The translations under genes were made by a program, and so were the position numbers. DNA of 64,000 nucleotides from Nevskia sp. (GTDB lineage Bacteria; Pseudomonadota; Gammaproteobacteria; Nevskiales; Nevskiaceae), in the NCBI GenBank assembly GCA_028291705.1, contig JAQGNS010000428.1, forward strand, positions 9,255 to 73,254, given 5' to 3'. The notes under the pieces were generated by a model. That model had not been told where the DNA came from and did no database searches. It saw only the letters and a list, made by a program, of their open reading frames with translations. Shown piece after piece: positions 289 to 57,603 of this stretch; position 1 is the stretch's first letter; every line of letters begins with the position of its first letter.

Positions 289-371
289 TTGTCGGACTGC
301 GGAAGCTGCGCTCGGGTGGGAGAGTCGACATCGAGCGCGGGGCGGCCGTACTTGCGAGCCGCCCCGCGCTG

Positions 372-3185
372 CTACAAGGCTTCGATCTTCCCTATCTGCT
401 CGTTCAGTGCCGCCAGTTCCTGCTGCTGCTGCGCGATGCGGGTGCGTTCGCGTTCCAGAACCTCGGGCGGGGCGCCGTTGACGAACTTCTCGCTGCCCAT
501 GCGCGCCAGGTTCTTCGCCAGATCGGACTCGGTCTGGGCCTTTTTCTTGCGCAGGCGCGCCAACTCGGCTTCCTTGTCGATCAGGCCGGCCATCGGCACC
601 AGGATCTTCATGCTTCCGAGCAGGGAGGTGGCTGAAACCGGTGGTTCCTCGCCGACGGCGAGCAGGCGTGGTTCCTGGACATTCGTCAGTGCCATGATCG
701 AACCGGCGAGGCGGGCGATACGCTCCGCGTCCGCGGTTGCCGCATCCTGCACCAGCAGCGGCAGGGTGATCTTCGGCGAGATGTCCATGCCGCTGCGGAT
801 CTGGCGCACGCCGAGGATGAAGGCCTTGAGCCATTCCACGTCGGCTTCCGCGGCCTCGTCGATCTTTTCCGGCTGCGCCGTGGGGTAGGGCTGCAGCATG
901 ATGGTTTTGCCCGTCTTGCCGGCGAGCGGCGCCACGCGCTGCCACAGGTCTTCGGTGACGAAGGGCATCAGCGGATGCAGCAGGCGCAGGATCGTTTCCA
1001 GCACGCGCAGCAGGGTGCGGCGCGTGCCGCGCTTGGCCGAGTCGTTGTCGCCGCGCAGGGTCGGCTTGGTCAGTTCCAGGTACCAGTCGCAGTACTCGTT
1101 CCACACGAACTGGTACAAGGTCTGTGAGAGCAGGTCGAAGCGGTAGGTCTTGAAATGCTCGGCCGCCTCGGCCTCGACTTTTTGCAATCTGGAAATGATC
1201 CAGCGGTCGGCTTCGCTCAGCCAGGCCTGCCCATCCGGATTCGGATCCTGCTCTTCGCAATTCATCAGCACGTAGCTGGTCGCGTTCCAGATCTTGTTGC
1301 AGAAGTTGCGATAACCGGCGGCGCGGCTGAAATCGAAACGGATATCGCGGCCGGGGCTGGCCAGCGAAGCGAAGGTGTAGCGCAGCGCATCCACGCCCAC
1401 CGCCTCGATGCCGGCGGGGTAGTCCTTGCGCGTCGCCTTCTCGATCTTCGGCGCGGTCTCCGGCTTCATCAGCCCGGTGGTGCGCTTCTTCAGCAGTTCG
1501 TCCAGGCTGATGCCGTCAACCAGATCCAGCGGGTCGAGCACATTGCCTTTGGACTTGCTCATCTTCTGGCCTTCGCTGTCGCGGATCAGGCCGTGCACGT
1601 AGACCTCGCGGAACGGCACGTCGCCGTGCAGCTTGAGGCCCATCATCACCATGCGCGCCACCCAGAAGAAGATGATGTCGAAGCCCGTTACCAGCACGCT
1701 GCTGGGATAGAACTTCTTCAGTTCCGGTGTTTCCCGCGGCCAGCCCAGCGTCGCCAGCGGCCAGATGTCGGAGGAGAACCAGGTGTCGAACACGTCCTCG
1801 TCCTGCCGCAGCGCCAGGTCGGCGGCCAGCTTGTACTTGCTGCGCACCTCGGCTTCGTTGCGCGCCACGTAGATGTTGCCGTCGGCGTCGTACCAGGCCG
1901 GGATGCGATGGCCCCACCACAGCTGGCGGCTGATGCACCAGTCCTGGATATTGCGCAGCCAGTGGAAGTAGGTATTGCTCCAGTTCTCCGGCACGAACTT
2001 GATGCTGCCGCCTTCCACTGCCTGGATTGCAGGTTCGGTGATCGCGGTCCGGCCGCCGGGGCGGCCGTCGTCCAGGGTCTTGCGGGTCAGGTCGACGAAC
2101 CACTGGTCGGTGAGATAAGGCTCCACCACCACACCGCTGCGGTCGCCGATCGGCAGCTTGAGCTTGTGATCGTCGATCTTCGCCAGCAGGCCCTGTGCTT
2201 CCAGGTCCGCCACAACACGTTTGCGGGCTTCGAAGCGGTCGAGGCCACGGTAAGCGGCGGGCGCCTCATCGTTGATGGCGGCCGTAGGCGTGAAGATATT
2301 GATGACCGGCAGCTTGTGGCGCTGGCCGAGGGCGTAATCGTTGAAATCGTGCGCCGGCGTGATCTTGACGCAGCCGGTGCCGAACTCGCGATCGACATAG
2401 TCGTCGCCGACGATGGGGATTTCGCGGTCGGACAGCGGCAGCTTCACCTTGCCGCCGATCAGGTGCTTGTAGCGCTCGTCCTCCGGGTGCACCGCCACCG
2501 CGGTGTCGCCCAGCATGGTTTCCGGGCGGGTGGTGGCGACGACGATGTAGTCGAGGCCGTCCTGGGTCTTGGCGCCGCCGGCCAGCGGGTAGCGGAAGTG
2601 CCACAGCTTGCCGTCCTTCTCTTCCTGCACCACCTCCAGGTCGGAGATGGCGGTCTGCAGCACCGGGTCCCAGTTGACCAGGCGTTTGCCGCGGTAGATC
2701 AGGCCGTCCTCGTGCAGGCGCACGAAGTGTTCGATCACCGCTTCGGAATAGCCGGGGTCCATGGTGAAGGCCTTGCGCGACCAGTCCACCGAACTGCCCA
2801 TGCGGCGGATCTGGTTCTCGATGGTGTCGCCGGAGTATTTCTTCCACTCCCACACCTTCTCGACGAACTTCTCGCGGCCCAGGTCGAGGCGTGAGCTGCC
2901 CTGCAATTTGAGGTTGCGCTCCACCACCATCTGCGTGGCGATGCCGGCGTGATCGGTGCCCGGCTGCCACAGCGTGTCGTCGCCGCGCATGCGGTGGTAG
3001 CGCGTGAGCGCATCCATGATGGTGTGCTGGAAAGCGTGTCCCATGTGCAGCGTGCCGGTGACGTTCGGCGGCGGGATCATGATGGAGTAGGGCGCACCGC
3101 TGCCCTGCGGCGCGAACCAGCCGCTGCTTTCCCAGGTATCGCGCCAGCGTGCCTCGATGGCGCGGGGGTCGAAAGTCTTTTCCAT
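372..3185 (-). CDS. valS: Valine--tRNA ligase
   Basis: [13 protein letters not shown] (HIGH-type) motif, [19 protein letters not shown]-terminal coiled coil; 937 aa. Confidence 0.99.
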
Positions 3186-3290
3186 GTCAGGGTCTGTCGG
3201 CGCGAGAGGCGCGAATGTACCGGCGGCCGCAGCGGCCGCCGTGCGAGGGGTATTTTACCGCGCGCCCGGCGCGGAGCCGGGCGGTCAGGC

Positions 3291-3728
3291 TCAGCTGGCG
3301 TTGTTCGGCGTCAACGCGGGGCCGGGCGTGCGTTCGCAGTCCGGGCCGCGCACCACATCGACCTCGTCGACCACGCCGCCGCTGGGCAGGACCACGACCT
3401 GGTCGCGGTTCTCGCAGGCGAAGCTGAGCTTGCCGGAGCGCTGCACGCAGGACAGGAAGCGCGAGGCGCTGCGGTTGCGGCCCAACTCGTCGGTGAAGTT
3501 GCCGGTGCGGGTGTCGCAGTTGTAGCCCTGCGAGGACAGGGTCGCCTCCGCCGCCACCATGGTGGTGCCGATCGGCACGCTGGCGTGCACATGGTCGCTG
3601 GTCTTGGGATCGACGGTCTGGTTGAAGGTGCTGCGCACGTAGTCGTGCAGGCCGCTGAAAGTGCTGCAACCGGAGATCAGGAAGCTGGCAGCGAGCCCTG
3701 CGGCGAAACGGGCGGAATGGGGGCTCAT
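3291..3728 (-). CDS. Hypothetical lipoprotein between holC and valS
   Basis: Signal peptide MSPHSARFAAGLAASFLISGC with an ISGC lipobox; four further Cys; co-oriented with the holC-valS run. Confidence 0.7.
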   Translation of the reverse strand: MSPHSARFAAGLAASFLISGCSTFSGLHDYVRSTFNQTVDPKTSDHVHASVPIGTTMVAAEATLSSQGYNCDTRTGNFTDELGRNRSASRFLSCVQRSGKLSFACENRDQVVVLPSGGVVDEVDVVRGPDCERTPGPALTPNNAS

Positions 3729-3748
3729 GGAATGCCTCGGTTTGAACT

Positions 3749-4183
3749 TCAAAGATTATGGGAGGACAGCTCGTAACCGCGGTCCCGGTAGAATTTGTAC
3801 CGTTCGCGCGATTTTGCGCGCTGTACGGCATCGCCGTCGACAATTTCGAGCACCCGTTCGAAGCTGCTGAAAAAAGGCGGCACGTCGAGGCCCAGGTTGA
3901 TCATCACGCCGTGATGGCTTGCCGGTGGTTCGCCGTCGCCGATCAGCACGTAGGGCAGGGGCTCCTGCAGGGGCGTGCCGAGCCGTTCGTGGGCGATGAA
4001 GCTGCCCTGGCGGAAACTCCACAGCAGGCTGTCGACGGCGTTCGACACCGCCGCGTCCGGCGCGTACACATAGACCCGCTGGCCGCCCGCAGCCGCCTTG
4101 TCACACAGCTTGCAGGCGGTCATCACCGCGCCCTCGGGCGGCTTGCCGCCTTCGGGGAGAATATAGAAATCGACGCGGGTCAT
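3749..4183 (-). CDS. holC: DNA polymerase III subunit chi
   Basis: MTRVDFYIL start, LLWSFRQGSFIAH, RERYKFYRDRGY end; conserved pepA-holC-valS order. Confidence 0.96.
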   Translation of the reverse strand: MTRVDFYILPEGGKPPEGAVMTACKLCDKAAAGGQRVYVYAPDAAVSNAVDSLLWSFRQGSFIAHERLGTPLQEPLPYVLIGDGEPPASHHGVMINLGLDVPPFFSSFERVLEIVDGDAVQRAKSRERYKFYRDRGYELSSHNL

Positions 4184-4208
4184 CGGCCTGCGCTGCCGGC
4201 GGCGCGCC

Positions 4209-5720
4209 TCATTCCTCGTGCTTGGCGGCGTAGTTCAGCAGGTACTGCACCAGCAGGGGCACCGGTCGGCCGCTGGCCTTCTTGCCGGTCCAGGCGGTGC
4301 CGGCGATATCCAGGTGCGCCCACTTCAGCTTGCGGGTGAACTTGTGCAGGAAGGTGGCGCCGATGATGGCGCCGGCCTCGCGCGCGCCGATGGTGGCGAT
4401 ATTGGCCACGTCGGCGAACTCGCTCTTGATCTGCGGTTCGTATTCCGGCCACAGCGGCAGTTCCCAGGCGCGGTCGCCGATCTGCTCGCCGGCGCTGAGC
4501 AGGGAGCGGACCAGGCCGGACTGGTTGGCGAACAGGCCCGAGGCGTGGCTGCCGAGGGCGACGACGCAGGCTCCGGTGAGGGTGGCCATGTCGATGCACA
4601 CTGCCGGGTCGTAGGTCTTCTCGGCGTAGGTGAGGGCATCGCACAGGATCAGGCGGCCTTCAGCGTCGGTGTTCAGCACCTCGATGGTGATGCCGGCCAT
4701 GCTGGTGACGATGTCGCCCGGCTTCACCGCTTCGCCGTTGATCAGGTTTTCGGTTGCGGGAATGATGCCGATCAGGTTGATCGGCAGCTTCAGTTCGGCC
4801 ACCGCGGCGAAGACGCCGAATACCGAGGCGCCGCCGCACATGTCGAACTTCATCTCGTCCATCGCCGCCGCCGGCTTGATCGAAATGCCGCCGGCGTCGA
4901 AGGTCAGGCCCTTGCCGACCAGGGCGATGGGCGCTTCGCCCTTGGGCCCCTTGAGGTATTCCATCACGATCAGCTTGGGCGGCTGGCTGCTGCCGCGGGC
5001 CACCGAGAGCAGGGCACCCATGCCCAGCTTCTCCATGTCGGCCTTTTCCAGCACCTTGGCCTTGAAACGGTAGGCTTCGGCCAGCTTCATGGCCTGGTCC
5101 GCCAGGTAGGTCGGCGTGCAGTAATTGCCCGGCAGGTTGGCCAGGTCCTTGGTCAGGGCCACGCCATGGCCGATGGCCAGCGCTTCCGCCAGGCCTTTTT
5201 CGCCCGCCGGCAGATCGCTGCGGCGCGGCACGTCGAAGGTCAGGCGCTCCATCTTCGGCTTGGGCAGGTCTTCCCGCGCCCGTTCGCCGCGCATGGCGTC
5301 GAAACGATAGTTCTCGTTCTCGATGGCCAGGGTGGCCTGCTGCACGTTCCAGTGGTAATCCCGTCCCTTCACCGCCAGGTGGGTCAGGTAGATCACGGCG
5401 TCGATGGCGCCGGTGGAGCGCAGCGCCCGGGCCACTGAGGCGTGCACCTTGCGGAAGGCGCCCTCGTCGAAATCGCGCTCGCGGCCCAGGCCGACCAGCA
5501 TGACGCGGTCGCAGAACACGCCGGTGAGGTTGTGCAGCACCAGGGTCTGGCCGAGTTTGCCGTCCATGTCGCCGCGACGCATGATGCTGCCGATGGCGCC
5601 TTCGGTGACCTGGTCGATGGTCGTTGCCGACTCCGTCGGGTTGCGGCGGTCGAAAATGCCCACCACGACGCAGGCGACGCGCTGCTTCTCGGGATTGCCG
5701 CTTTTTACGAAATATTCCAT
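4209..5720 (-). CDS. pepA: Leucyl aminopeptidase (M17)
   Basis: VGKGLTFDAGGISIK, MKFDMCG and NTDAEGRL metal-binding motifs. Start reassigned to MEYFVKSG (ATG at 5720). Confidence 0.97.
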   Translation of the reverse strand: MEYFVKSGNPEKQRVACVVVGIFDRRNPTESATTIDQVTEGAIGSIMRRGDMDGKLGQTLVLHNLTGVFCDRVMLVGLGRERDFDEGAFRKVHASVARALRSTGAIDAVIYLTHLAVKGRDYHWNVQQATLAIENENYRFDAMRGERAREDLPKPKMERLTFDVPRRSDLPAGEKGLAEALAIGHGVALTKDLANLPGNYCTPTYLADQAMKLAEAYRFKAKVLEKADMEKLGMGALLSVARGSSQPPKLIVMEYLKGPKGEAPIALVGKGLTFDAGGISIKPAAAMDEMKFDMCGGASVFGVFAAVAELKLPINLIGIIPATENLINGEAVKPGDIVTSMAGITIEVLNTDAEGRLILCDALTYAEKTYDPAVCIDMATLTGACVVALGSHASGLFANQSGLVRSLLSAGEQIGDRAWELPLWPEYEPQIKSEFADVANIATIGAREAGAIIGATFLHKFTRKLKWAHLDIAGTAWTGKKASGRPVPLLVQYLLNYAAKHEE

Positions 5721-6000
5721 TTTTTCTCTGAATCTGGCGGTAGAACGCTTGAAAACAGGCAAAAGCCGGTATCGGGGTGCAAGCCTCGTGCCGGGCGGCC
5801 CGGGTAAGCGGGGCGGCCTGGAGTATTCCTGATTTTTACCGGCTGTTTCGGATGCGGCGCTGATTGTAAGCCATTCTTCGCAAATCGCCAGAGGCGACGG
5901 CGTCCCAGGGGGGCTTCGCCCCGGGCAGATGCGGGAATCTGCTTTGCCGTTCCGGCGGCCGCACCCGCTACTCACGAGCAGCGGTTAAACTTCCCCGCTC

Positions 6001-7074
6001 ATGAACCGCCTGGTCCTCGACCGATACCTGATGCGTGAAGCGGCGACCGCCTGGTTTGCGGTCACCTTCGTGCTGCTGGCCATCATGCTGTCGACCCGTT
6101 TCGCCAGCGTGCTGGGCATCGCCGCCAAGGGCGATCTGCCGCGCGACCTGCTGCTCAACGTGGCCCTGCTGTCGACCCTGCGCTACCTTGTCATCCTGAT
6201 TCCGGCCTCGCTGCTGCTGGCCATCATGATGTCACTGGGGCGCCTGTACAGCGATAACGAGATCGCCGCCATGACCGGCTGCGGCGTCGGCCTCGGGCGC
6301 CTGTACCGGCCCTTCCTGTGGCTGGCGGTGCTGCTGGCGGCGCTGACCGCGGCGCTGTCGTTTTCCATCGGTCCCTGGGCCGGCCGCCAAGCCGACTTCC
6401 TGGTCAAGGACGCCAAGCGGCTGGTGCAGTACACCCCGTTCGAGCCCGGGCAGTTCAAGCCCACCGCCGGCGGCAAGGCGGTGTTCTATACCGCTTCGAT
6501 GAATCCCGACGGCACCCAGTTCGGACAGGTGTTCGCCCAGATCGAGGAAGCCCACGGCGCCAGCGTGGTGGTGGCCACCCGCGGCGAACAGAACAGCGAC
6601 CCAGCCACCGGCGACCGCTCGGTGCGGCTGTTCGACGGCTACCGCTATTCCGGCATCCCGGGCACGGCTGAATACGACGTGGTCAAGTTCAAGGAACTGA
6701 CCCTGCGCCTGTCGCCCCCGGCCTTCGACTACATCAACAACCAGCGCGTGCTCAGCCCCACCGGCGACCTGATGGGCAGTGCCGATCCGCGCGACCAGGC
6801 GGAATTGCAATCGCGCCTGGCGGCACCGCTGTCGGTGCTGATCCTGGCGTTGCTGGCGGTGCCGCTGTCCCACCTGCGCCCGCGCCAGGGCCGCTACGGC
6901 AAGCTGGTGCTGGGCATCCTGGCGGTGCTGGTCTACCTCAACCTGATCAGCTTCGGCGCCACCTGGGTCGGCAAGGGCAAGGTGCCGCCGATGCTGGGCC
7001 TGTGGTGGGTGCACGGCCTGATGCTGAGCGTCGCGCTGGTGCTGATCGCGCGCCGGCAAGGGTGGCTGCGATGA
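6001..7074 (+). CDS. lptF: LPS export ABC transporter permease LptF
   Basis: LDRYLMRE start, GRLYSDNEIAAM motif, multi-TM; divergent from pepA as in many gammaproteobacteria. Confidence 0.94.
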   Translation: MNRLVLDRYLMREAATAWFAVTFVLLAIMLSTRFASVLGIAAKGDLPRDLLLNVALLSTLRYLVILIPASLLLAIMMSLGRLYSDNEIAAMTGCGVGLGRLYRPFLWLAVLLAALTAALSFSIGPWAGRQADFLVKDAKRLVQYTPFEPGQFKPTAGGKAVFYTASMNPDGTQFGQVFAQIEEAHGASVVVATRGEQNSDPATGDRSVRLFDGYRYSGIPGTAEYDVVKFKELTLRLSPPAFDYINNQRVLSPTGDLMGSADPRDQAELQSRLAAPLSVLILALLAVPLSHLRPRQGRYGKLVLGILAVLVYLNLISFGATWVGKGKVPPMLGLWWVHGLMLSVALVLIARRQGWLR

Positions 7075-8132
7075 TCAACCGCCTCGACCGTTACGTCATC
7101 AGCCACGTGCTGCAGCTGACCGGCATCGTCGCCCTTGGTTTGGTTTCGATCTACACCCTGGTGGTGTTCGTCTCCGACGTCAACGAGACCGGCAAGGGTA
7201 GTTACGGCGTACTGCAGGTGCTGGAATACAGCCTGCTGATGATCCCCAGCAGCCTCTATATCCTGATGCCGATCGTGGCCCTGCTCGGCACCCTGATGGG
7301 TATCGGCGCGCTGTCGCGCAGCGGCGAACTGACCGCGATGCGTTCGGCCGGCGTGTCGCTGTCCCGCATCGGCGGGGCCACCCTCATCGCCGGGGCGGGA
7401 CTGGCGGTTTTCGCCTTTTTCCTCGGCGACTGGCTGGCGCCGACCAGCGAGGCCGTGGCCACCGAGCTGCGCGACAGCTCGCGCGGCAGCGGCGGCAATA
7501 CCGGCAAGTCGGTATGGCTGCGTGATGCCGACCGCGTGGTGCGCATCAGCAAGCTGCAGAGCGAGGACCACATCGGCGACGTCACGGTCTTCAGGCTGGG
7601 CAGCGACGGCCGCCTGGAAGCTGCGCTGACCGTCGACGAAGGGGTCTACGTCGACGGGCACTGGCGGCTGTCGGGGGTGAAACGCACCGATTTCGCCGAC
7701 GACCACACCACCGTCACCGTGCTCGACCAGATGGACCTGGGCAACGGCATCAGCCCCAATGTGCTCAAGCTGTTCATCCTCGAGGCCGGCAGCCTGTCGG
7801 CGCATGGTCTGGTGCGACTCATCGGCTACATGGACGAAAACCACCTCGACGCCGCCAAATACCGCCTGCTGCTGTGGCGCAAGCTGACCGAGCCGCTGAC
7901 GGTGATGGTGATGATGTTGTTCGCGGTGCCTTTCGTCATCGGGCAGTTGCGTGACGCCGGGGCCGGCCAGAAACTGCTGGCGGGCGCCCTGGTCGGCATC
8001 GTCTTCTACGTCGTCAACAAGGTGTCGGTGAGCCTGGGGGACATCTACCAATGGCCGGCGCCGCTGGCGGCCGGCTTGCCTACCCTGGGGTTGGCCTTGC
8101 TGTCCTGGTGGCGGTTGTCGCGGGCGCGTTAA
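7071..8132 (+). CDS. lptG: LPS export ABC transporter permease LptG
   Basis: MINRLDRYV start overlaps the lptF stop (ATGA); LSRSGELTAMRSAG motif. Confidence 0.94.
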   Translation: MINRLDRYVISHVLQLTGIVALGLVSIYTLVVFVSDVNETGKGSYGVLQVLEYSLLMIPSSLYILMPIVALLGTLMGIGALSRSGELTAMRSAGVSLSRIGGATLIAGAGLAVFAFFLGDWLAPTSEAVATELRDSSRGSGGNTGKSVWLRDADRVVRISKLQSEDHIGDVTVFRLGSDGRLEAALTVDEGVYVDGHWRLSGVKRTDFADDHTTVTVLDQMDLGNGISPNVLKLFILEAGSLSAHGLVRLIGYMDENHLDAAKYRLLLWRKLTEPLTVMVMMLFAVPFVIGQLRDAGAGQKLLAGALVGIVFYVVNKVSVSLGDIYQWPAPLAAGLPTLGLALLSWWRLSRAR

Positions 8133-8650
8133 ACCGGTCGGGGTAGCAGCACCATCTCGGTGCTGGTCAGCCGGTCGTAGAACGCGCGGCGCCTGCCGTC
8201 GAGCAGCAGAAACGCCACGGCAATGAAGGTGTAGGCCGCACAGGCGCCCGTCGTCTCGACGCGGTACGGTACGGTCGCCGTCACGGCGGCCGGCAGCGCC
8301 GGCAGCATCAGCACTGCCAGCGCGATCAGCCAGCTGGCCAGCATCAGGGTATAGCGCACCGCGGCCACCGGCCAGCGCACCGCCGCACCATCGGCGCGCA
8401 CCAGTTGCAGGCGCCAGGAGCGCATTCCCAGTGTTTGCCCGCCATGGGTCCAGGACCAGCCGAAAAAGGCCAGCCCGGTGAGGAACAGGAGCAGTGAATT
8501 GGCATGGTCGTTACGGGCCACCTCCACCAGGTTGTGCATGAACAGGCTGGCTAGCAGAACCACCATCCACAGCGCCAGCAGCAGCAGGCCGTCGTAGCAG
8601 GCGGCGGCCAGGCGTCGCCAGGGCGAAGCGGGGAGTGCGGGGGCTGTCAT
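8129..8650 (-). CDS. RDD family membrane protein
   Basis: WRRLAAACYD, GQTLGMRSWRL and YDRLTST RDD motifs; usual position after lptG. Confidence 0.92.
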   Translation of the reverse strand: MTAPALPASPWRRLAAACYDGLLLLALWMVVLLASLFMHNLVEVARNDHANSLLLFLTGLAFFGWSWTHGGQTLGMRSWRLQLVRADGAAVRWPVAAVRYTLMLASWLIALAVLMLPALPAAVTATVPYRVETTGACAAYTFIAVAFLLLDGRRRAFYDRLTSTEMVLLPRPV

Positions 8651-8759
8651 GGTGTGGTGCGTCGCAGAAGCGTAGGATGGGTGGGCTACTTGTCACGATT
8701 CCGGCGGCTCGCCGGGGGCAGGTATTGTACAAACTGGCGGTTGCGCACTGGGGGAGACC

Positions 8760-8918
8760 ATGGCGGAAGAAGATCCTTCACTGCTTGATCGCAGCGGCAT
8801 TTTCTATGTCAGCCCGCGCGAGCATCGCCGCAAGCTGACCCGGCGCGCGCACTGGGCCCTGTGGGCCTTGCTGGTCGGCTTCGCCACGGGTTTCGTGGTG
8901 GTGCGCCTGTTTTTCTGA
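8760..8918 (+). CDS. Small single-pass membrane protein (52 aa), absent from the ORF track
   Basis: GGGGAG RBS before ATG at 8760. MAEEDPSLLDRSGIFYVSPREHRRKLTRRAHWALWALLVGFATGFVVVRLFF: basic patch then one TM helix. Apparent homologue at 55804-55926. Confidence 0.65.
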   Translation: MAEEDPSLLDRSGIFYVSPREHRRKLTRRAHWALWALLVGFATGFVVVRLFF

Positions 8919-9248
8919 GGCCGGCACAAAAATGGCCGGGCCGGGCTTGGCCGGGCCCTGCCGGCGTTCCCGAGCACCTGGGCGGCCTTCGGGCCGCGTT
9001 CCGGCTGCCCTTGCGGGGCAAGCCGGGACTCGATTGCCGCCGGGCGGACTGGCCGTCATATTCCGTTCGCATCAAACCGGTATACGGTACCAGCCGGGAC
9101 TCCCGACGCTTGGATCCGACCATGACGGCCCGTTTCCTGCGTTAGGATTAGGGAACCAGGATCGCGTGACGGGGCGCAATCCGGGCGCCGGCATCCACCA
9201 GGCAGCATTCCGGCGGGAGCTGAATTCAAAATGGGAGTTCGCGGGCCG

Positions 9249-9716
9249 ATGGCCGTGCGTAAAAAATACCTTTTCGATTCCTTGTCGGATTTCATCGGCA
9301 AGGAGCTTGGCGTCACCGACTGGACCGTGATCAGCCAGGAGCAGATCAACCTGTTCGCGGATTGCACCGGGGACCGGCAGTGGATGCACGTCGACGCCGA
9401 GCGCTGCCGCCGGGAAAGCCCCTACGGCGCGCCGGTGGCGCACGGCTTCCTGGTGCTGTCGGTGCTGGCCAAGCTGGTGGCGGACCTCGGCGGCATCCCG
9501 GAAGACGCCACCGGTGCCATCAATACCGCTGTCAACAACGTACGTTTCCGGGCGCCGGTGCTGGCCGGCGCGCGGGTGCGCGCCCGCGCGGGCATCGCCG
9601 GGGTTGCGCCGCTCAACGAAACCCAGAGCCTGGTTACCGCGGCGGTGGAACTGGAAGTGGAGGGCGGGGCCGCCCCGGCCCTGACGGCGGACCTGATGGT
9701 GCTGATGTTCCGCTGA
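9249..9716 (+). CDS. MaoC-family (hot-dog fold) dehydratase
   Basis: IGKELGVTDWTVISQEQINLFADCTGDRQWMHVD and AHGFLVLS motifs. Confidence 0.9.
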   Translation: MAVRKKYLFDSLSDFIGKELGVTDWTVISQEQINLFADCTGDRQWMHVDAERCRRESPYGAPVAHGFLVLSVLAKLVADLGGIPEDATGAINTAVNNVRFRAPVLAGARVRARAGIAGVAPLNETQSLVTAAVELEVEGGAAPALTADLMVLMFR

Positions 9717-9750
9717 GGCGCCGCCCGGCCAGCCGCAGCCCACGCTGTTT

Positions 9751-9779
9751 TTGTGTCGCGCCGCAGCCTCCCCTATAAT
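9751..9779 (+). promoter_or_regulatory. sigma70 promoter of tRNA-Glu
   Basis: TTGTGT (9751-9756), 17 bp spacer, TATAAT (9774-9779), then a GC-rich discriminator GCGCGCC, 14 bp before the tRNA. Confidence 0.75.
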
Positions 9780-9793
9780 GCGCGCCTTGCAAC

Positions 9794-9869
9794 GCTCCTA
9801 TCGTCTAGAGGCCTAGGACGGAGCCCTCTCAAGGCTTAAACCCGGGTTCGAATCCCGGTAGGAGCGCCA
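9794..9869 (+). tRNA. tRNA-Glu, anticodon CTC
   Basis: 76 nt. Acceptor stem GCTCCTA/TAGGAGC, anticodon stem GAGCC/GGCTT with loop CT-CTC-AA, T-arm CCGGG-TTCGAAT-CCCGG, encoded CCA. Confidence 0.96.
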
Positions 9870-11376
9870 TGCTTACCGGGTTTATCCCGGTATTAGTGGC
9901 CGAGACCGCGTACTCGATTCGGCATTCCAGGGAAGCTGGATCGAGCACGATCTCCTTTACGAAGCTGCGCAGCGTCACCTTGAGCGCCTCGGGCTTGGCA
10001 TCCCGCATACTTTCAGCCAGGTCGGACAGGATATGGCGCATTTCTGCCACGCTGATTGAACGAACGGCCTTGCCCAGGTCTTCCTGCTCGCGCAGATCCT
10101 GTTGCTGCTCCACCAATTCCTTCCGCTCCCGCTCCAGGGCCTCGATCTTGCGCTGGAATGGCCCAGGGTCCTCCATGCCCAGCGCCAGGCTGGCCGCCTT
10201 GTCGATCATCACGGCGATCTCCGCGATGCGCCGGTGTAGTTCCTTGAGCTGGGCGCTGTAGTCCGGTCCCTTGCTGGCCGTCTCGCGGATCAGAGCCTGC
10301 GCGAACGGCTCGCTGGGCAGGTCGGACGTGATCCGATCCAGGATGGGCTGTTCGACCGTTTGGAGGGGTACATAGCGCTTGCTGCCGTCCGGCCGCTCGG
10401 CGAAGTAGTGCGCACCTTTATTGCCCTCCCAAGTGATGCCGTTGGGCGTCATCAGCAGACCGGACAGCAGGTAGCGGGATACGCCGGCCTTGCCCTGGGA
10501 CACCGCCTTGGCGTGGTCGCTATGCTCTAGCAGGTTCAGGATCGCCTCGGCCTGTTGGCGTGTAATGAGCGCGGGGTGGGTGTCCGATTGGATCACCCAC
10601 TCGGAGCGCGGGCGGCGCTTGCGCTGGCCCTTATAGCCGCCGGTGCTGGTACGCTCTTGGAACACGCCGAAGGTGGTGCAGCCGGCGTAAGTAAGGGCGT
10701 TCCACTCGATGCCCACCAGGGTGGAGGAACTGAGTTCGAGTCCGGCCGCGTGCGCCGCCTGCATGCGGGGCAGGTTGGTCGCCCGCAGATCCAGAAACTT
10801 CTGGACCTTTGAAGATTCCAACGCTGGCTCCAGCACGGACTTGGTCACCGGTGCGCCATCGCGCACCAGCCCAATATCCACCTTGCGCAGGCGGTAGCCG
10901 TAGGGTGCGTGCCCGGCGGCCCGGTAGCCCTGGCGGACGTTCTCGGCCATGCCGGCGAGGCCCTTATCGCGGCTGGTCAGGCTGTGCCACTCGTCGAACG
11001 CCTGCATGACGGCCCGGACGATCATCATCGTCGTGGGGTCGCCGTTGTCCGGAAGGTTGGCGTAGATCACTTCAACGTCGTTGTTGAAGCACTCGACCTC
11101 TTCGAAGATCAGGGCCAGGTTGCGCCGTCGCGCGATGCGGCTGGTGTCCTTGGTCAGCACCGCGGTCCAGCCGCGCGAGCGGTTGCGGATCGCCTTGATG
11201 AGTTTTTGGAAGCCGGGGCGGTCCCAATCCTTGCCTGATTCGACCGCGTCCGAGTATTCCCCGACAAGGGTCAGGCCGCGCTGCGCCGCCAGCGCAGTCA
11301 GCTCATGCCGCTGGCTTTGGATCGAGACGTCTTTTTGGTCCTTGCTGGACCGGAGATACAGAACGGCGTGTTTCAT
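9829..11376 (-). CDS. Large serine recombinase (integrase)
   Basis: N-terminal YLRSS catalytic motif, DAVESG...RPGF, DTSRIAR, recombinase domain (APYGY; HPALIT), coiled coil. Last codons overlap the tRNA antisense strand. Confidence 0.93.
   Translation of the reverse strand: MKHAVLYLRSSKDQKDVSIQSQRHELTALAAQRGLTLVGEYSDAVESGKDWDRPGFQKLIKAIRNRSRGWTAVLTKDTSRIARRRNLALIFEEVECFNNDVEVIYANLPDNGDPTTMMIVRAVMQAFDEWHSLTSRDKGLAGMAENVRQGYRAAGHAPYGYRLRKVDIGLVRDGAPVTKSVLEPALESSKVQKFLDLRATNLPRMQAAHAAGLELSSSTLVGIEWNALTYAGCTTFGVFQERTSTGGYKGQRKRRPRSEWVIQSDTHPALITRQQAEAILNLLEHSDHAKAVSQGKAGVSRYLLSGLLMTPNGITWEGNKGAHYFAERPDGSKRYVPLQTVEQPILDRITSDLPSEPFAQALIRETASKGPDYSAQLKELHRRIAEIAVMIDKAASLALGMEDPGPFQRKIEALERERKELVEQQQDLREQEDLGKAVRSISVAEMRHILSDLAESMRDAKPEALKVTLRSFVKEIVLDPASLECRIEYAVSATNTGINPVSMALLPGFEPGFKP
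9837..9884. repeat. att-like site A: TAAACCCGG-N30-CCGGGTTTA overlapping the tRNA 3' end
   Basis: 9-bp inverted repeat at 9837-9845 and 9876-9884; same arms and spacing as site B. Confidence 0.6.
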
Positions 11377-11506
11377 GGCACTTCTGCTCCTGGAGTGCCT
11401 TGATGCGGGACTCGATCAGCGGCAGCAGCAGATGCGCGAATGCGGGATCGGGCCGGCCGACTGAAGGCAGCATCTTGAGTTGCTGCCGCGAAGGGCCGCG
11501 AGCCAT
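11303..11506 (-). CDS. Possible small protein upstream of and overlapping the integrase start (directionality-factor candidate)
   Basis: 67-aa ORF MARGPSRQQLKMLPSVGRPDPAFAHLLLPLIESRIKALQEQ..., co-oriented with the integrase. Supported by position only. Confidence 0.35.
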   Translation of the reverse strand: MARGPSRQQLKMLPSVGRPDPAFAHLLLPLIESRIKALQEQKCHETRRSVSPVQQGPKRRLDPKPAA

Positions 11507-11826
11507 GTCAGGGCCCGCCCCGCTTTCCCGCTGCCGAAGATCTGCTTCGTGCCATCCCTGTCCCGTCCTGACCTCTCATTGGAGGGACAAGGAATATCGC
11601 AAAGATCAGCCAACATTCAAGGATTGCTGTGTACTGATGAATTTATAATGGTATTTATGACTTGTAAAGCCCCATGTACATGCAAATAGTTTTGTAGGAA
11701 CGACGCTTGATATCTGACCGGTGCAAATGCCTTTTGCGTAGCTTAAAAGACGAAGGATGGTGATTGAAATTGGAAGGGTGAGAACGATGATTGAGAATAT
11801 ATAAGTCACTTCTATATGAGCATATA

Positions 11827-11874
11827 TAAACCCGGATTCTTGTAAATTTATCTACTTGCGCCAACCCGGGTTTA
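11827..11874. repeat. att-like site B: TAAACCCGG-N30-CCGGGTTTA in an AT-rich tract
   Basis: Arms at 11827-11835 and 11866-11874 (extendable to the 11-bp TATAAACCCGG/CCGGGTTTATA). Spacer contains TA...GCGCCA like the tRNA end. Confidence 0.6.
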
Positions 11875-12035
11875 TACGTAGATGTATGCCTCTATCACCG
11901 TCAATACCGGCGGTCGTAAGGCGCCGGTACCCCAGAGATGCCCCTCGTCCTCGAACTGCCGCCGCACTCGCTCTACCGGATCAAACAACGGCCGTACCGC
12001 TGCCGGCGCCGTAAGCGGCCTCGGCCAAGCTGCGC

Positions 12036-12683
12036 GTGACCCCCGAGCAGCTACCGCGCGCCTTGGTTCAGGGCGACTTGTTCAAAGCCGACATCGCCTG
12101 GTTTCCGGTTCTATGCGAGATGCTGCGCAGCGGCGCGGCGGCCGACCTTCAGCCGCACACGATGATGGTGTACCTCACCTTGAAGTCCTACGCCGACTTC
12201 AACACTGGAATCGCCCAGACCACCATAGAGACGGTTGCCAAGGAAACCGGCATGTCAGTGCGTCAGGCCGCGACCAGCGTAGGCCGGCTGGTCGGCAAGG
12301 GTTTAATCCGGCGCCTGCGCAAGGGTGGACGCGACCGCAGCAGCGCTTACCAGATCGTCGAGCGGCTGACGATCAAGGACCACGGCAACAACACAGTGGC
12401 GATCGCCGACTGGGAATTCATCCGCCGCGATTGGCAGGGCCATCTCCGGGAAATCCGCCAGGCCGTGCTGGACGAGCTGCAGCGCACGGCGGGGTCGGCG
12501 GGTGGCCTGTCGGATCGGCATCTGGTCCTGATCGAGAACCTGCAGGTCAATTTGCAGCTCATCCAGAACCAGTTCGTCCATCCGACGAACGGTACCCCGG
12601 CGACGTCGCCTGCTAGGGACTCCGCGCACTCGCAAAACTATCCACAGCGTGGGGTCCGCTTTTATCCACAAGGAGGGAAATGA
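12036..12683 (+). CDS. Winged-HTH (HTH_36-like) DNA-binding protein, candidate replication initiator
   Basis: VYLTLKSYADFNTG...IETVAKETGMSVRQAATSVGRLVGKGLIRR wHTH pattern; GTG start; followed by DnaA boxes and parA. Confidence 0.75.
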   Translation: MTPEQLPRALVQGDLFKADIAWFPVLCEMLRSGAAADLQPHTMMVYLTLKSYADFNTGIAQTTIETVAKETGMSVRQAATSVGRLVGKGLIRRLRKGGRDRSSAYQIVERLTIKDHGNNTVAIADWEFIRRDWQGHLREIRQAVLDELQRTAGSAGGLSDRHLVLIENLQVNLQLIQNQFVHPTNGTPATSPARDSAHSQNYPQRGVRFYPQGGK

Positions 12684-12857
12684 CATGCACCACCTGCCGG
12701 TAATTGCCCCTTTAGCGTGCACTAGGTGCCGGTTAATCAAACAATTAACAGGCACCACGTGCAGACAAGAAAGAATAAAGAAAAAGAGCTTTTTAAGAAG
12801 GGCCCCGTCCAGCGTTCTGCTGTGGATAAATCGCTGCGCCCCCTTCCTTGTGCACAA
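12638..12857. promoter_or_regulatory. DnaA-box cluster with an A/T-rich stretch (putative oriV)
   Basis: CTATCCACA 12638-12646, TTATCCACA 12662-12670, TGTGGATAA 12821-12829, TTGTGCACA 12848-12856. A-rich tract at about 12730-12800. Confidence 0.6.
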
Positions 12858-12929
12858 CAGCCCAAAAGCCAAAAGCGTTTGCCGAAACGGGCTGGTCGCG
12901 GCCGGCACTGTGCCGACAGGGTTCTGACC

Positions 12930-13607
12930 GTGCGCATCCTCATTGGCGGTGAAAAAGGCGGCAGCGGCAAATCGACCCTGGCAACCAACTTGGTCGTCGC
13001 CCTGCGGCTGGCCGGCCGCGACGCCTTGTTGCTGGACGCGGATGGCCAGCGCACTTCGGCCAAATGGGCCGAACGGCGGGCAGCATCCGAAATCGTCCCG
13101 GCCGTGCCCTGTACCGAGAAGCGCGATGACCTCAAGGCGGTGGTGCGCGAGCTGGGTTCGCGCTATCAGGATGTGGTTGTTGACGCCGGCGGGCGCGACA
13201 GCCGGGAGCTGCGCTCCGCGCTGCTGGTAGCGGATCTGGCCCTGTTTCCGCTGCGGCCGTCGCAGGCGGACCTGGAAACCGTGCCCCATCTGGCCGAGCT
13301 ACTGCAGCTCGCGCGCTCGCTGCGCGAGAACGGTGCTCCGCTCGCTGGACTCGTATTGAGCATGGCGCCGACGCACTACCTGGTCAGTGAAGCTCGCGAC
13401 GCGGCAAGCATGCTCGAAGCCCTGCCGGACTTCGTGCTGGCCGAAACCTTGATCCGCGAACGCAAGGTTTACCGCGACGCATTGCTTTCCGGACGCAGCG
13501 TTCTGGAGATGGACAACGAGACAGCGCACTTCGAGGTGCGCCAACTCATCAAGGAGATCAGCAATGGTGCAATCCAAGTTCCAGTTGCACAGCGCGACCC
13601 TGCCTAG
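12930..13607 (+). CDS. parA: ParA-family ATPase (short, no N-terminal HTH)
   Basis: GTG start VRILIGGEKGGSGKSTLATNL (deviant Walker A), LDADGQRT, VVVDAGG, PLRPSQAD. Confidence 0.9.
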   Translation: MRILIGGEKGGSGKSTLATNLVVALRLAGRDALLLDADGQRTSAKWAERRAASEIVPAVPCTEKRDDLKAVVRELGSRYQDVVVDAGGRDSRELRSALLVADLALFPLRPSQADLETVPHLAELLQLARSLRENGAPLAGLVLSMAPTHYLVSEARDAASMLEALPDFVLAETLIRERKVYRDALLSGRSVLEMDNETAHFEVRQLIKEISNGAIQVPVAQRDPA

Positions 13608-13821
13608 TGCCGCTCCGCCGGCGGAAACGGCGACCGCCAACCGCTTCGTCAATGGTGCAGAGGCACGTAGCACCGAACTGCTGGTGAAGTTCACAGTGCC
13701 GCTGGATAGCGCGCGGCACGACAAGATGCGCGTGCATGCGGCGCTGGCTCGGCGGAGCATGGCGGAATTTCTGCGCGACCTGATCGACCGGTTGCCCGCG
13801 GTCGAACTGCCACCGCGTTAG
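13564..13821 (+). CDS. Ribbon-helix-helix DNA-binding protein (ParG-like partner of ParA)
   Basis: Flexible N-terminus, then VKFTVPLDSARHDKMRVHAALARRSMAEFLRDLIDRL; overlaps the parA end. Confidence 0.75.
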   Translation: MVQSKFQLHSATLPSAAPPAETATANRFVNGAEARSTELLVKFTVPLDSARHDKMRVHAALARRSMAEFLRDLIDRLPAVELPPR

Positions 13822-13833
13822 TCGGAACCTTCA

Positions 13834-15549
13834 TTGCGCTATTCCTGGAAAGATCTGGTGCCGCCGGTGCTGTTCCTGGCGGCCGGTCCCTGGCTGGCTG
13901 GAATGCTGTTCGCTTCGTTTGTCGGCGCCAGGCATTACGTGCCGGGCTACTTCGAATTCGTCGGCATGTGGCATCGCTTTGCGCCCGACCCGCACTACCG
14001 GAAGCTGCTGCATGTGGCCGCTGTAGTTCCGGTGGTGCTAGCGGCCTTGTTTGCGATCATTCCGGCTCTGGCGGGCAGGCCGGCTTACTTCGGCAACGCG
14101 CACTTCGCTGATGAGGCGGAAGTCCGCGCCGCGGGTCTGCGCGCCAGGGAAGGTGTGATTCTCGGCCGGTTGCGCGGCCGTCTGTTGCGAGCGCAAGGCC
14201 AGCTCGGCTTGCTGTTGTTCGCGCCGCCGCGTTCGGGCAAGGGCGTGGGCTTCGTCATTCCAAATCTGCTGACTTGGCGCGATTCAGCCATCGTCAACGA
14301 TCTCAAGCTGGAGAACTACGAGACGACTTCAGGCGCCCGGTCAGCGATGGGCCAGCAAATCGTGCTGTTTGCGCCACTCGATGCCGAAGGGCGCACCCAT
14401 GCCTACAACCCGCTGGACTTCGTATCGAAGGATCGGCGCCTGCGGGTCAATGATGTGCAGGCGATCACCGCCAAGCTGATCGTGACGCCGCCGCGAGCCG
14501 ATCCGATGTGGAGCAACGAGGCGAGGGTGCTGCTCGACGGTCTGATTCTGTTCTTGCTGGATGTGAACCGGCAAGCCTCGCTGGGAGCGGTGTACCGGAT
14601 GGTGCTGTCGGTGCCCAACTTCGCCGACTATCTCACTTGGGCGATGAAGGAATACGATGGCCGGCTCGATCCGGTGGCGGTGATGCAGTTCAACGGGTTC
14701 CTGGGCAAGGCGTTCAAGGAGCAATCGGGCGTGCTTTCGACGCTGAAGGCCTCGCTGTCCCTATTCGCCAACCCGCTGGTGGACCGTGCCACGTCCACTA
14801 CGGAATTCGACCCCAGGGAATTGCGGCGCCGGCCTATGACCATCTACCTCGGCGTAGTGCCGCGTGACATCGCGCGGCTGTCGCCGTTGCTCAATATCTT
14901 CGTGCAGCAGACCTTCGACGGATTGCTCGGGCGGCTGCCGGGGAGGGATGAGCCGCACCAGGTCCTGGCGTTGCTGGACGAGTTCACGGCGCTGGGACGG
15001 CTGGAGAACGTCGAGAAAGGCATTGCCTACTTCGCTGGGTACAACATCATCCTTGCCCCGGTGATACAGGATTTGTCCCAACTGGAGGAGGTATACGGTC
15101 AAGCCGTCACCGAGACTTTCCTGTCCACCGCCAATATCCGTATCGCCTACGCCCAGAACAGCCTCAAGACGGCCAAATACCTGTCGGAGGAGCTGGGCTT
15201 TCGCACCATCACCACGCGGACCAGATCCCGCCATGTCAACGATCCGTGGCAGGGGCATGTCTCGGAATCACAGACCCGGCGCGAGCTACTGCTGCCGCAT
15301 GAAATCCGCGAGCTGGACCGGCGCAAGGCGCTGCTGCTGGTCGAGGCAGCGCCGCCGATCAAGGTGGACAAGATTCGGTACTACCGGGAGCGGGCATTTG
15401 TCCGACTGCTTCGGCCGGAAGTGGGGCGGCCACACCTACGCAACACCACAGTCGAGCCGCCACGAATGCCGGCCGCCGGGCCGCCATTGAGCGACCAGGA
15501 AATCGATCACGTGCTGGAGTCGATTGACTCGAACCGAGCCGCCCGGTGA
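13834..15549 (+). CDS. virD4: Type IV coupling protein, VirD4/TraG family
   Basis: Two N-terminal TM segments, GNAHFA, APPRSGKGVGFVIPNLL (Walker A), LLDEFTALG (Walker B), IQDLSQL. Confidence 0.92.
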   Translation: MRYSWKDLVPPVLFLAAGPWLAGMLFASFVGARHYVPGYFEFVGMWHRFAPDPHYRKLLHVAAVVPVVLAALFAIIPALAGRPAYFGNAHFADEAEVRAAGLRAREGVILGRLRGRLLRAQGQLGLLLFAPPRSGKGVGFVIPNLLTWRDSAIVNDLKLENYETTSGARSAMGQQIVLFAPLDAEGRTHAYNPLDFVSKDRRLRVNDVQAITAKLIVTPPRADPMWSNEARVLLDGLILFLLDVNRQASLGAVYRMVLSVPNFADYLTWAMKEYDGRLDPVAVMQFNGFLGKAFKEQSGVLSTLKASLSLFANPLVDRATSTTEFDPRELRRRPMTIYLGVVPRDIARLSPLLNIFVQQTFDGLLGRLPGRDEPHQVLALLDEFTALGRLENVEKGIAYFAGYNIILAPVIQDLSQLEEVYGQAVTETFLSTANIRIAYAQNSLKTAKYLSEELGFRTITTRTRSRHVNDPWQGHVSESQTRRELLLPHEIRELDRRKALLLVEAAPPIKVDKIRYYRERAFVRLLRPEVGRPHLRNTTVEPPRMPAAGPPLSDQEIDHVLESIDSNRAAR

Positions 15550-56903: not shown

Positions 56904-57240
56904 ATGGATATGAGAGCAACCACCACCGGCTAGGAATTGCTGATCCCGCTGACGGCGCTGCGCCCTTCCCGGCGCAACGTCCGCAAGAGCGGCGGCACCC
57001 CGATCCGGCAACTGGCCCGCAGCATCGAGCGGGTTCAATTACTGCACAACCTCGTCGTCACCGAAGCCGGCGACGGTAAGCACTACGACGTGGAGGCCGG
57101 CAAGCGCAGGCTCAAGGCCCTGCAACTGCTGGTGAAGCGCAGGCGCCTGCCGAAAAACCACGCCGTGCGCTGCCTGCTGGTGGCGGACGAAGCGGCGCTG
57201 ACCGCCAGCCTCACCGAGAACACCCAACGCGAGGACATGT
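56904..57240 (+). pseudogene. ParB/Srx-like gene of plasmid/ICE type: nonsense codon and 3' truncation
   Basis: GGAGA RBS, ATG at 56904, in-frame TAG at 56931-56933. Then LIPLTALRPSRRNVRK...LLHNLVV...EAGKRRLKAL...SLTENTQRED; similarity ends near 57240. Confidence 0.8.
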
Positions 57241-57318: not shown

Positions 57319-57603
57319 GTGTGCGGCGCAGAGAGCATGCGCGGCGCCTTCATCATCGCCGACTACCGCAATCGCGTGCTGCAGCAGTCGAGCTGGCACA
57401 CTGGCCGGCCTTACGCACGCTCCACCATCAATGATCGCGTGCGGACAATCTGCCGCTTCTACGAGTGGGTGCATCAGCAGGGCCTGGTCCAGGCCAGGCC
57501 CTTTCACTTCGTCGATGTGCGGGTCTGGGGCAGGCCGCGTGAGTCAATGTTGATGCACACCCAGGCGCGGCCGACCGTAACGGAAAAGTACCAGGCCCAT
57601 TGA
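57319..57603 (+). pseudogene. Fragment of a tyrosine-recombinase N-terminal (SAM-like) domain
   Basis: IADYRNRVL...YARSTINDRVRTICRFYEWV pattern; no catalytic domain follows. Confidence 0.55.

Follow-up and report, generated by a model that had tools for sequence, protein, structure and literature searches.

The stretch of DNA analysed here is a window of 64,000 nucleotides (64 kb) from a Nevskia sp. contig (JAQGNS010000428.1, assembly GCA_028291705.1), and the subject of this report is a large serine integrase gene in it together with two 48-bp sequences resembling attachment (att) sites, referred to as site A and site B. On the left, an intact transfer RNA (tRNA) gene, tRNA-Glu with anticodon CTC, occupies positions 9794 to 9869 of the forward strand; it was detected with ARAGORN and by the Rfam tRNA model (60 bits), and all of its positions (76/76) are identical in the metagenomic relative L055 described below. 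The integrase gene, which encodes 515 amino acids (aa), runs on the reverse strand from 9829 to 11376 and was recognised with Pfam, PHROGs and an AlphaFold2 (AF2) model. Its start is overlapped by a 67-aa open reading frame (ORF) on the same strand (11303 to 11506), and an AT-rich non-coding leader (11590 to 11826) separates this operon from site B. Site A covers 9837 to 9884 and overlaps the 3' third of the tRNA gene, site B covers 11827 to 11874, and both are read on the forward strand. To the right of site B follows a truncated module resembling an integrative and conjugative element (ICE) or a plasmid.

The pattern shared by the sites, TAAACCCGG-N30-CCGGGTTTA, has exactly two matches in the window, both without mismatches. 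No match was found in 100 dinucleotide-preserving shuffles of the window, and none is expected by chance. A preliminary description of this stretch had reported the paired arms at identical spacing, left arms that both run on to TAAACCCGG(G/A)TTC, and a TA-N3-GCGCCA common to both spacers with an offset of 4 bp, and the coordinates bear this out. In site A, TA lies at 9859-9860 (site position 23) and GCGCCA at 9864-9869; in site B, TA lies at 11853-11854 (site position 27) and GCGCCA at 11858-11863. The same description had named a common motif as grounds for abandoning its interpretation; on both strands of the 64 kb, the exact 9-mer is confined to the four arms of the two sites. A scan of IMG/VR for the arms at spacings of N26-36 gave only five matches, all of them unrelated hairpins. 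The claim that the sites bracket only the integrase was too narrow, since the 67-aa ORF and about 320 bp of AT-rich leader lie between them as well and the integrase ORF runs through site A.

The integrase and its target in tRNA-Glu(CTC)

The domain content of the 515-aa protein was compared at the level of sequence and predicted fold. Pfam reports a Resolvase domain (PF00239, E 5e-20) at residues 4-150, the residues R9, S10, D77, R80 and R83 are invariant in 119/119 sequences, and the PHROGs integrase family phrog_95 covers residues 1-487. The Recombinase domain (PF07508) scores 20.4 bits (E 6e-4), just below its cutoff of 21.1 bits. The AF2 model, built on 119 relatives with a mean predicted local distance difference test (pLDDT) of 89.5, comprises a catalytic domain, a long alpha-E helix, a recombinase domain, a beta-ribbon region with strands at 317-337 and a coiled coil at 374-439, while the final 20 or so residues are disordered. 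With Foldseek, this model matches the SPbeta, phiC31 and Bxb1 integrases over its full length (550-620 columns, E 1e-16 to 1e-13). Based on the domain matches and the alignment of the predicted fold, the protein is a large serine integrase. Its ribbon region (about residues 300-340, window 10360-10480) contains no cysteines, the only ones in the protein being at 96, 233 and 485, and canonical zinc binding is therefore impossible there. The ribbon domain expected to read the distal 9-mer would thus be a zinc-less version of the zinc ribbon known from large serine recombinases. Substitutions relative to L055 at the three codon positions of the gene (29/18/106) indicate purifying selection. Exact-protein look-ups returned no record for either the integrase or the neighbouring MaoC protein, and a scan of a genome collection with the latter as query gave only distant matches (38-48% aa identity).

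The identification of site A is based on both the empty target and the free form of related elements. Three metagenomic relatives of the host with an empty site (L033/L035, L037 and L039) are 85-89% identical to the window over 358-9869, the MaoC gene included. Their homology stops exactly at the tRNA 3' end (9869), where a terminator hairpin is found instead of the integrase. In free-phage contigs (L008, L010, L011, L012 and about 28 IMG/VR loci), the integrase 3' end bears a 52-bp imperfect palindrome, both halves of which contain a distal motif as well as an inner one (TGGCG(C/T)..). Its centre reads A(C/A/G) in the sense of the integrase, equivalent to (G/T/C)T in the sense of the tRNA, and corresponds to tRNA positions 65/66, which are GT 9858-9859 in the window. 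Site A consists of an attB-type (B-type) half, formed by the arm 9837-9845 and 12 nt, the central GT, and a P' half with AGGA, the GCGCCA mentioned above, TGCTTA and the arm 9876-9884. This right half can be superimposed on the integrase-side (left) half of the free-phage attP, and the last 11-12 nt of tRNA-Glu come from the inserted element. The comparison with empty and free forms identifies site A as a genuine attL of DNA inserted into tRNA-Glu(CTC) by a large serine integrase. The crossover would have occurred at G65-T66 of the tRNA, with the P' half of the element rebuilding the tRNA 3' end.

The overlap of the integrase gene with attL has a consequence for the protein. Its last 13 or so codons are antisense tRNA sequence (..MALLPGFEPGFKP), and the ORF crosses the junction. 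Two C-terminal forms are accordingly seen in the alignment of the family: integrated copies end in ..MALL(P/R)GFEPxxxP, encoded by the antisense T-loop, whereas free-phage copies are about 30 aa longer and read ..LRKRPAC..Y.DGR..RW... Integration thus swaps the C-terminal tail of the integrase, and the swap could be a built-in switch of integrase activity or stability between the free and the integrated state.

Among the candidates scored, 1,213 proteins belong to this large serine integrase family with E<=1e-3, and 79 viral loci from IMG/VR (L067-L145) represent it. Its members are found in phages and prophages of proteobacteria, most of which are about 40 kb in size. From the about 60 att sites read here, the targets are tRNA genes cut at positions 65/66 and attP is the 52-bp palindrome at the integrase 3' end. 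According to the Islander paper, published in 2015, no serine integrase was then known to use a tRNA gene as target (PMC4383910), and no later description of tRNA-targeting serine integrases was found in the literature searched, the coverage of which is incomplete. This family context, with tRNA targeting, an attP within the integrase 3' end and the tail swap, may be a more valuable by-product than the arrangement of sites A and B itself.

Further observations concern the use of the same tRNA by other elements. In a host relative with a flank about 93% identical (run X4), a related but diverged integrase (<85% nucleotide identity) is present at the same tRNA-Glu. The sequence after the tRNA continues there with TTCTATGGGGTTTATCCCGATAG.., encoding ..GINPIEMALLPGFEP, and this second integrase indicates that tRNA-Glu is a recurrent target. 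In L026, L027 and L054, a partial second copy of the tRNA 3' part is located 60-80 bp downstream of tRNA-Glu. These copies resemble scars or junctions left at the gene by other elements, probably of the tyrosine-integrase kind. In L018, the small ORF and the serine integrase are directly preceded by a gene (positions 3-686) whose C-terminal end by eye resembles a tyrosine recombinase (..YTHVLNKGGRGV..).

Half-site geometry and conservation of site B

The geometry of the sites was expressed as a shift, defined as the offset that best aligns the distal motif of one half-site with the other half. For free attP sites, the shift is 0 in 24 sites and 1 in 4 sites, the distal motifs being equidistant from the centre. 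At the tRNA-Glu(CTC) junctions, the motif on the tRNA side lies 4 bp closer to the centre in six out of six cases (L015-L018, L055 and the window), and the shift is 5 at junctions with another tRNA group. This agrees with the rule for the LI/A118 integrase, for which the 9-bp zinc-domain motif is found at positions 16-24 of the attP halves and 5 bp nearer to the centre in attB, with attP measuring about 50 bp and attB about 10 bp less (PMC3783163). The resulting half-site rules, a 52-bp attP and a shift of 4-5 bp on the tRNA side, give ready att predictions for the integrase family.

With these rules, the layouts of the two sites can be read as 9+12+GT+16+9 for site A and 9+16+CT+12+9 for site B, which is the complementary order in head-to-tail orientation. 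Site B begins with an attP-type (P-type) half (arm 11827-11835 and 16 nt), followed by the centre CT at 11852-11853 and a B-type half with ACTT, GCGCCA, AC and the arm 11866-11874; its right half reads ACTTGCGCCAACCCGGGTTTA. Relative to the central CT, the arms are found at 17-25 and 13-21, and GCGCCA occupies the same positions as in site A, +5 to +10. The arms and the inner motif, as registers independent of each other, both give site B the architecture of an attR. Both sites are 48 bp long because each is composed of one P-type and one B-type half. The P-type half of site B faces the integrase gene and its B-type half the neighbouring ICE DNA. A site composed of the left half of B and the right half of A would be 52 bp long (9+16+2+16+9) and have the attP geometry of the family, and the reciprocal one, with its left half from A and its right half from B, would be a 44-bp site of attB type.

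An origin of site B unrelated to the integrase was considered, with a hairpin, a terminator or the site of another protein, such as the HTH_36 protein or a partner of ParA, resembling site A by chance. Site B is indeed an inverted repeat of 12-14 bp in AT-rich intergenic DNA, next to genes for a Rep-like protein and ParA. However, it has 18 specified bases at identical spacing that occur nowhere else, and the inner GCGCCA is in register. Neither a T-run nor an Rfam match was found at site B that would point to a terminator or a known RNA, and the related module in L146 has no such sequence upstream of its HTH_36 gene. A chance resemblance is therefore highly improbable.

The conservation of site B was determined with L055, a metagenomic contig of 4.4 kb that is collinear with 9780-14146 at 88.5% identity and has the order tRNA, integrase, small ORF, leader, site B, HTH_36 and ParA. 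The identity amounts to 89.8% for the integrase gene, 83.2% for the AT-rich leader, 97.9% (47/48) for site B, 70% for the 140 bp after site B, 90.3% for HTH_36 and 87.6% for ParA. Owing to the sole change within site B, its arms in L055 form a perfect 12-bp repeat that is identical with the tRNA motif. If the local divergence is taken as the rate, the probability of at most one change in 48 positions is P ~0.002. Both sides of site B are equally diverged in L055, which indicates co-inheritance, and the substitutions by codon position point to purifying selection on HTH_36 (10/5/48) and ParA (28/16/65). Geometry and conservation together mark site B, by comparison of sequences, as a site of recognition type that has attR geometry, belongs to the same integrase family and is better conserved than the DNA around it.

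It is rather doubtful, though still deserving some weight, that site B is a dead fossil, that is, a functionless leftover junction whose conservation in L055 is due to chance or recent shared ancestry. The probability of at most one change rises to P ~0.016 if the overall divergence is used, the inner motif is missing from the P-type half, and decay is evident in the mosaic island, which holds a ParB-like pseudogene and a truncated ICE and in which no type IV secretion system (T4SS) or relaxase was found. On the other hand, the flanking non-coding DNA is far more diverged (83% and 70% compared to 98%), and the single change improves the palindrome rather than degrading it, with both 9-mers being perfect.

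The remaining parts of the enclosed DNA were compared in the same way. Substitutions in the leader (10/11/11) show no codon-position bias, and its reading frame is closed by a stop in L055. For these reasons, the idea that the leader serves as a C-terminal extension of the integrase in a circular form was rejected. For the 67-aa ORF, the substitutions relative to L055 are 1/1/6. No Pfam or PHROG matches were obtained for this ORF, and it could encode a regulator or a directionality factor. A similar ORF ('PD..A..LLPLI') is located upstream of the integrase in L015, L055 and, by eye, L018, with homology among such small ORFs being convincing for the closest relatives only. The small ORF and about 100 bp upstream of it (window 11377-11600) are 94-97% identical to L055, which is above most of the integrase gene.

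Whether sites A and B can recombine with each other depends on their centres. The dinucleotide at the centre of symmetry is GT in A and CT in B, both in the window and in L055. For serine integrases, the central dinucleotides must match for productive exchange (PMC3783163 and references cited there), so that exchange between A and B should be non-productive. A TA one base off the symmetry centre is shared by both sites; in L015, the tRNA has CA at that position and AC is kept at the centre. Excision would also affect the tRNA. The B-type half of site B reads T-ACTTGC-G-CCA, whereas T-AGGAGC-G-CCA is needed to pair with the 5' strand GCTCCTA of the tRNA, and with TACTTGC in place of TAGGAGC the excised tRNA would be left with three acceptor-stem mismatches. 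The native downstream DNA of L033/L035, L037 and L039 is the terminator hairpin and not ACCCGGGTTTA. No excision joint was found in the Logan contigs of the source soil sample, where one unbroken path covers 9841-14316, although such contigs miss rare forms. The predicted attP (left half of B with right half of A) and attB strings are absent from IMG/VR. The DNA to the right of site B, a truncated ICE fragment, represents neither chromosomal DNA native to this locus nor the natural terminus of an element. Going by these features, it is unlikely that sites A and B actively recombine with each other.

These results bear on the minimal integrase-only element of about 2 kb proposed in the preliminary description. 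In its active form, A and B would be attL and attR of a cassette of 1,994 bp that can excise as a circle with a 52-bp attP and reinsert. Several features fit this model: the hybrid geometry and head-to-tail orientation are correct, the halves rejoin to a family attP and a 44-bp attB-type site, TA is shared beside the centre, the integrase is intact and under purifying selection, and the small conserved ORF at its start could be the directionality factor. Nevertheless, the central dinucleotides differ (GT and CT), central mismatches block strand exchange by large serine recombinases (PMC3783163 and references cited there), the tRNA would be mispaired after excision, and the P-type half of site B has no inner GCGCC. 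In addition, the integrase and the genes to the right of site B have the same level of identity to L055 (about 88-90%), which shows no sign of independent movement and indicates that they were inherited as one unit. The missing joint in the source contigs and the missing strings in IMG/VR point in the same direction, the former being weak evidence. An active cassette of this kind, made up of the integrase, the 67-aa ORF and a promoter leader and landed in front of an older island, is unlikely. The description of A and B as att sites stands with respect to their attL/attR half-site geometry, while their role as ends of a minimal element is not supported in the form proposed.

Extent of the inserted DNA

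The module to the right of site B was annotated with Pfam and extends from 12036 to 15549 on the forward strand. It comprises genes for a Rep-like HTH_36 protein (12036-12683), ParA (12726-13607), an 85-aa ORF (13564-13821) and a VirD4/TraG coupling protein (13834-15549). The same module is collinear in L146, where it is preceded by a divergent ParB-like gene and a small alpha-type (alpA-like) regulator. The homology of L146 to the window starts only at about 12060, and it has no site-B-like sequence upstream of its HTH_36 gene. In the window, a ParB-like pseudogene was found at 56905-57239 on the forward strand, 45 kb away from the HTH_36 module; it contains an early in-frame stop, ends after about 114 codons and lies on the other strand. 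This displacement, in conjunction with the gene order of L146, indicates that the ICE backbone is broken just where site B sits. Following the pseudogene, a 94-aa ORF (57319-57603, forward strand) resembles by eye the N-terminal part of a tyrosine recombinase. Matches to a T4SS or relaxase were not obtained with Pfam for the larger ORFs from 16 to 61 kb, and a blastn search of the region with site B, HTH_36 and ParA against plasmids gave short ParA matches only. A second integrase remnant to the right of site B was also considered and not found by tblastn.

The right-hand limit of the inserted DNA was searched for by homology, by junction motif and by coverage. The DNA that follows the empty site in L039 (12.4 kb) matches nothing in the window. 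The far junction is expected to have the form TAAACCCGG-N16-GT-AGGAGCGCCA, and beyond it (G/A)T(T/A)CAAGGCAAAAC with the terminator. Searches for another attR with TAGGAGCGCCA, with arm-like 9-mers followed by GCGCC, and with blastn-short found none within 54 kb. In the source sample, the depth is 44.9 for the left flank and 28-31 to the right of the tRNA up to 64000, with no boundary in the window. Since native downstream DNA and an attR are both missing and the depth is even, the inserted or rearranged DNA extends past the end of the window. A and B bracket a module inside the inserted DNA and not the island itself. The preliminary description had placed its element in front of an older island. 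A foreign, truncated ICE-like module does lie to the right of site B, but A and B are not the island boundaries, as the empty-site relatives place the inserted DNA past position 64000.

The difference in depth between the left flank and the DNA after the tRNA implies that about one third of the flank copies continue differently after the tRNA. Either a different insert or the empty site could account for this other continuation. The left-flank contig of the source soil metagenome (run X1; window 7000-9870) ends at 9870, which indicates a branch of the assembly graph. A comparison of the source contigs with the native downstream DNA of L035 yielded a 3.9-kb contig at a depth of 42, in which no junction could be read.

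Based on this extent, site B could be internal to a single integrase-borne island of more than 54 kb with its true attR past 64000, where it would take part, for example, in multimer resolution of the circular form or in integrase-driven rearrangement. The absence of the native downstream DNA of the empty-site relatives from the window, the collinearity and equal divergence of integrase and ICE module in L055, and the inversion-like break of the ICE backbone at site B are consistent with such an island. In contrast, site A is the only partner site of B in 54 kb, and large serine recombinases are not known to resolve multimers at attR-like sites. We consider this explanation of site B unlikely as well.

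Possible origin and role of site B

The explanation that is tentatively preferred, with a confidence just short of even, is that site B is a relic of modular accretion that has been kept as a binding site of the integrase. The closest relatives of the integrase are found in phage genomes of about 40 kb. Recombination, either site-specific or homologous and involving a related att site, would have linked an integrase cassette from such a phage lineage with an ICE fragment, and site B would be the relic of this event. It would have been retained because an integrase dimer may still bind there. Sites A and B would form a locked pair, due to their different centres and the damage that excision would cause to the tRNA. 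The most likely present role of site B would be that of a parking or operator site for the integrase within the divergent promoter region.

The surroundings of site B were examined for promoters. Site B lies between the divergent integrase operon and the HTH_36-ParA-TraG genes. Within 800 bp, three promoter-like matches were found compared to 0.7 expected, and they overlap or flank site B on both strands, with all of them being identified by consensus matching only. A sigma-70-like match directed towards the integrase (11819-11846, reverse strand; -35 TTTACA, -10 TATGCT) overlaps the left half of B, a second one on the same strand is located at 11668-11640, and a rightward match lies at 11764-11791. 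The divergent position and the promoter matches make it plausible that site B acts as an autoregulatory operator or roadblock for the integrase, the operator being the alternative of the preliminary description, which also agrees with the conservation of site B.

Several points weigh against a retained binding and operator site. The excess conservation of site B could be due to chance when it is measured against the overall divergence. Its P-type half is missing the inner GCGCC that is present in every free-phage P half, and the putative binding may therefore be weak. For the idealised B-type half, which is the right half of B, no source was found in 43 tRNA-Glu loci or in IMG/VR. The support for a promoter at site B consists of consensus matches, and a better-placed candidate is found 160 bp away from it. 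Furthermore, no analogue of site B was found in the other integrated relatives examined, L015-L018, whose integrases are 57-63% identical and for which 0.2-1.8 kb of upstream sequence is available; an operator is consequently not a family trait. If the enzyme cuts at the off-centre TA, A and B could recombine after all. Finally, the whole reconstruction is built on sequence comparison.

A different history, which is improbable, would make the 2-kb unit of leader, small ORF, integrase and attP (within the 3' end of the gene) a self-contained cassette that can land beside islands lacking an integrase, on their tRNA-proximal side. At this edge, the islands would present an idealised half-site of attB type and thereby regenerate the landing pad, with site B being the scar of recruitment. 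If it were true, a decayed island could recruit a new integrase in cis.

The arrangement can be compared with several known systems. As for the LI/A118, phiC31, Bxb1 and SPbeta integrases, attP is a quasi-palindrome of about 50 bp around a central dinucleotide, the distal 9-bp motif lies 4-5 bp closer in halves of attB type (PMC3783163), attL and attR are hybrids with one half of each type, and the protein likewise consists of catalytic and recombinase domains, a beta-ribbon and a coiled coil. Unlike in these systems, the target here is a tRNA gene with the crossover at 65/66, attP lies inside the integrase 3' end, the C-terminal tail is swapped, the ribbon has no cysteines, and a second attR-like site with a different centre is located 2 kb from attL.

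Internal att sites that separate integrase-bearing from integrase-less modules at one tRNA-linked locus are also seen in the tandem accretion of integrative elements, with the ICESt1/ICESt3-CIME arrays, the SGI1 tandem arrays and the modular excision of PAISt as examples. These elements use tyrosine recombinases, their att sites share a core, and internal sites stay recombinogenic. A large serine recombinase, in contrast, would not normally target attL or attR, and the internal site described here looks blocked for recombination.

A serine-recombinase site between divergent genes that doubles as an operator is known from the res sites of Tn3 and gamma-delta. There, a small resolvase acts on three subsites for resolution, whereas nothing at this locus shows accessory subsites or resolution. 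Tyrosine integrases are also known to regulate themselves negatively through an attL that overlaps the promoter, as in KplE1 with IntS and TorI, where a hybrid att site at the integrase promoter is bound by the integrase and associated with a tRNA (PMC2951348). In KplE1 this is a tyrosine integrase with a real attL, whereas here the 3' end of the integrase gene harbours attL, and an additional attR-like site with a putative regulatory role is found on the promoter side.

While the half-site logic is textbook biology of large serine recombinases, the conserved attR-like site 2 kb from attL, with the integrase module alone enclosed, appears to be new, and site B is apparently unable to recombine with attL. 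Provided that site B binds the integrase but cannot take part in recombination with attL, nature would here have produced a recombination-dead att mimic. A mimic of this kind could regulate or lock in a serine integrase, which would be relevant for directionality control and the engineering of landing pads.

A second att-like sequence was also observed elsewhere in the family. In L125 (2390-2440) and L126 (1275-1325), the sequence TGGCGCCCCC-AG-CGGGGAC.. is located about 85 bp upstream of the integrase start. The codons preceding it read ..FAVVSMAPP, like the C-terminal end of another integrase, and this additional att-like sequence may be the relic of a tandem array.

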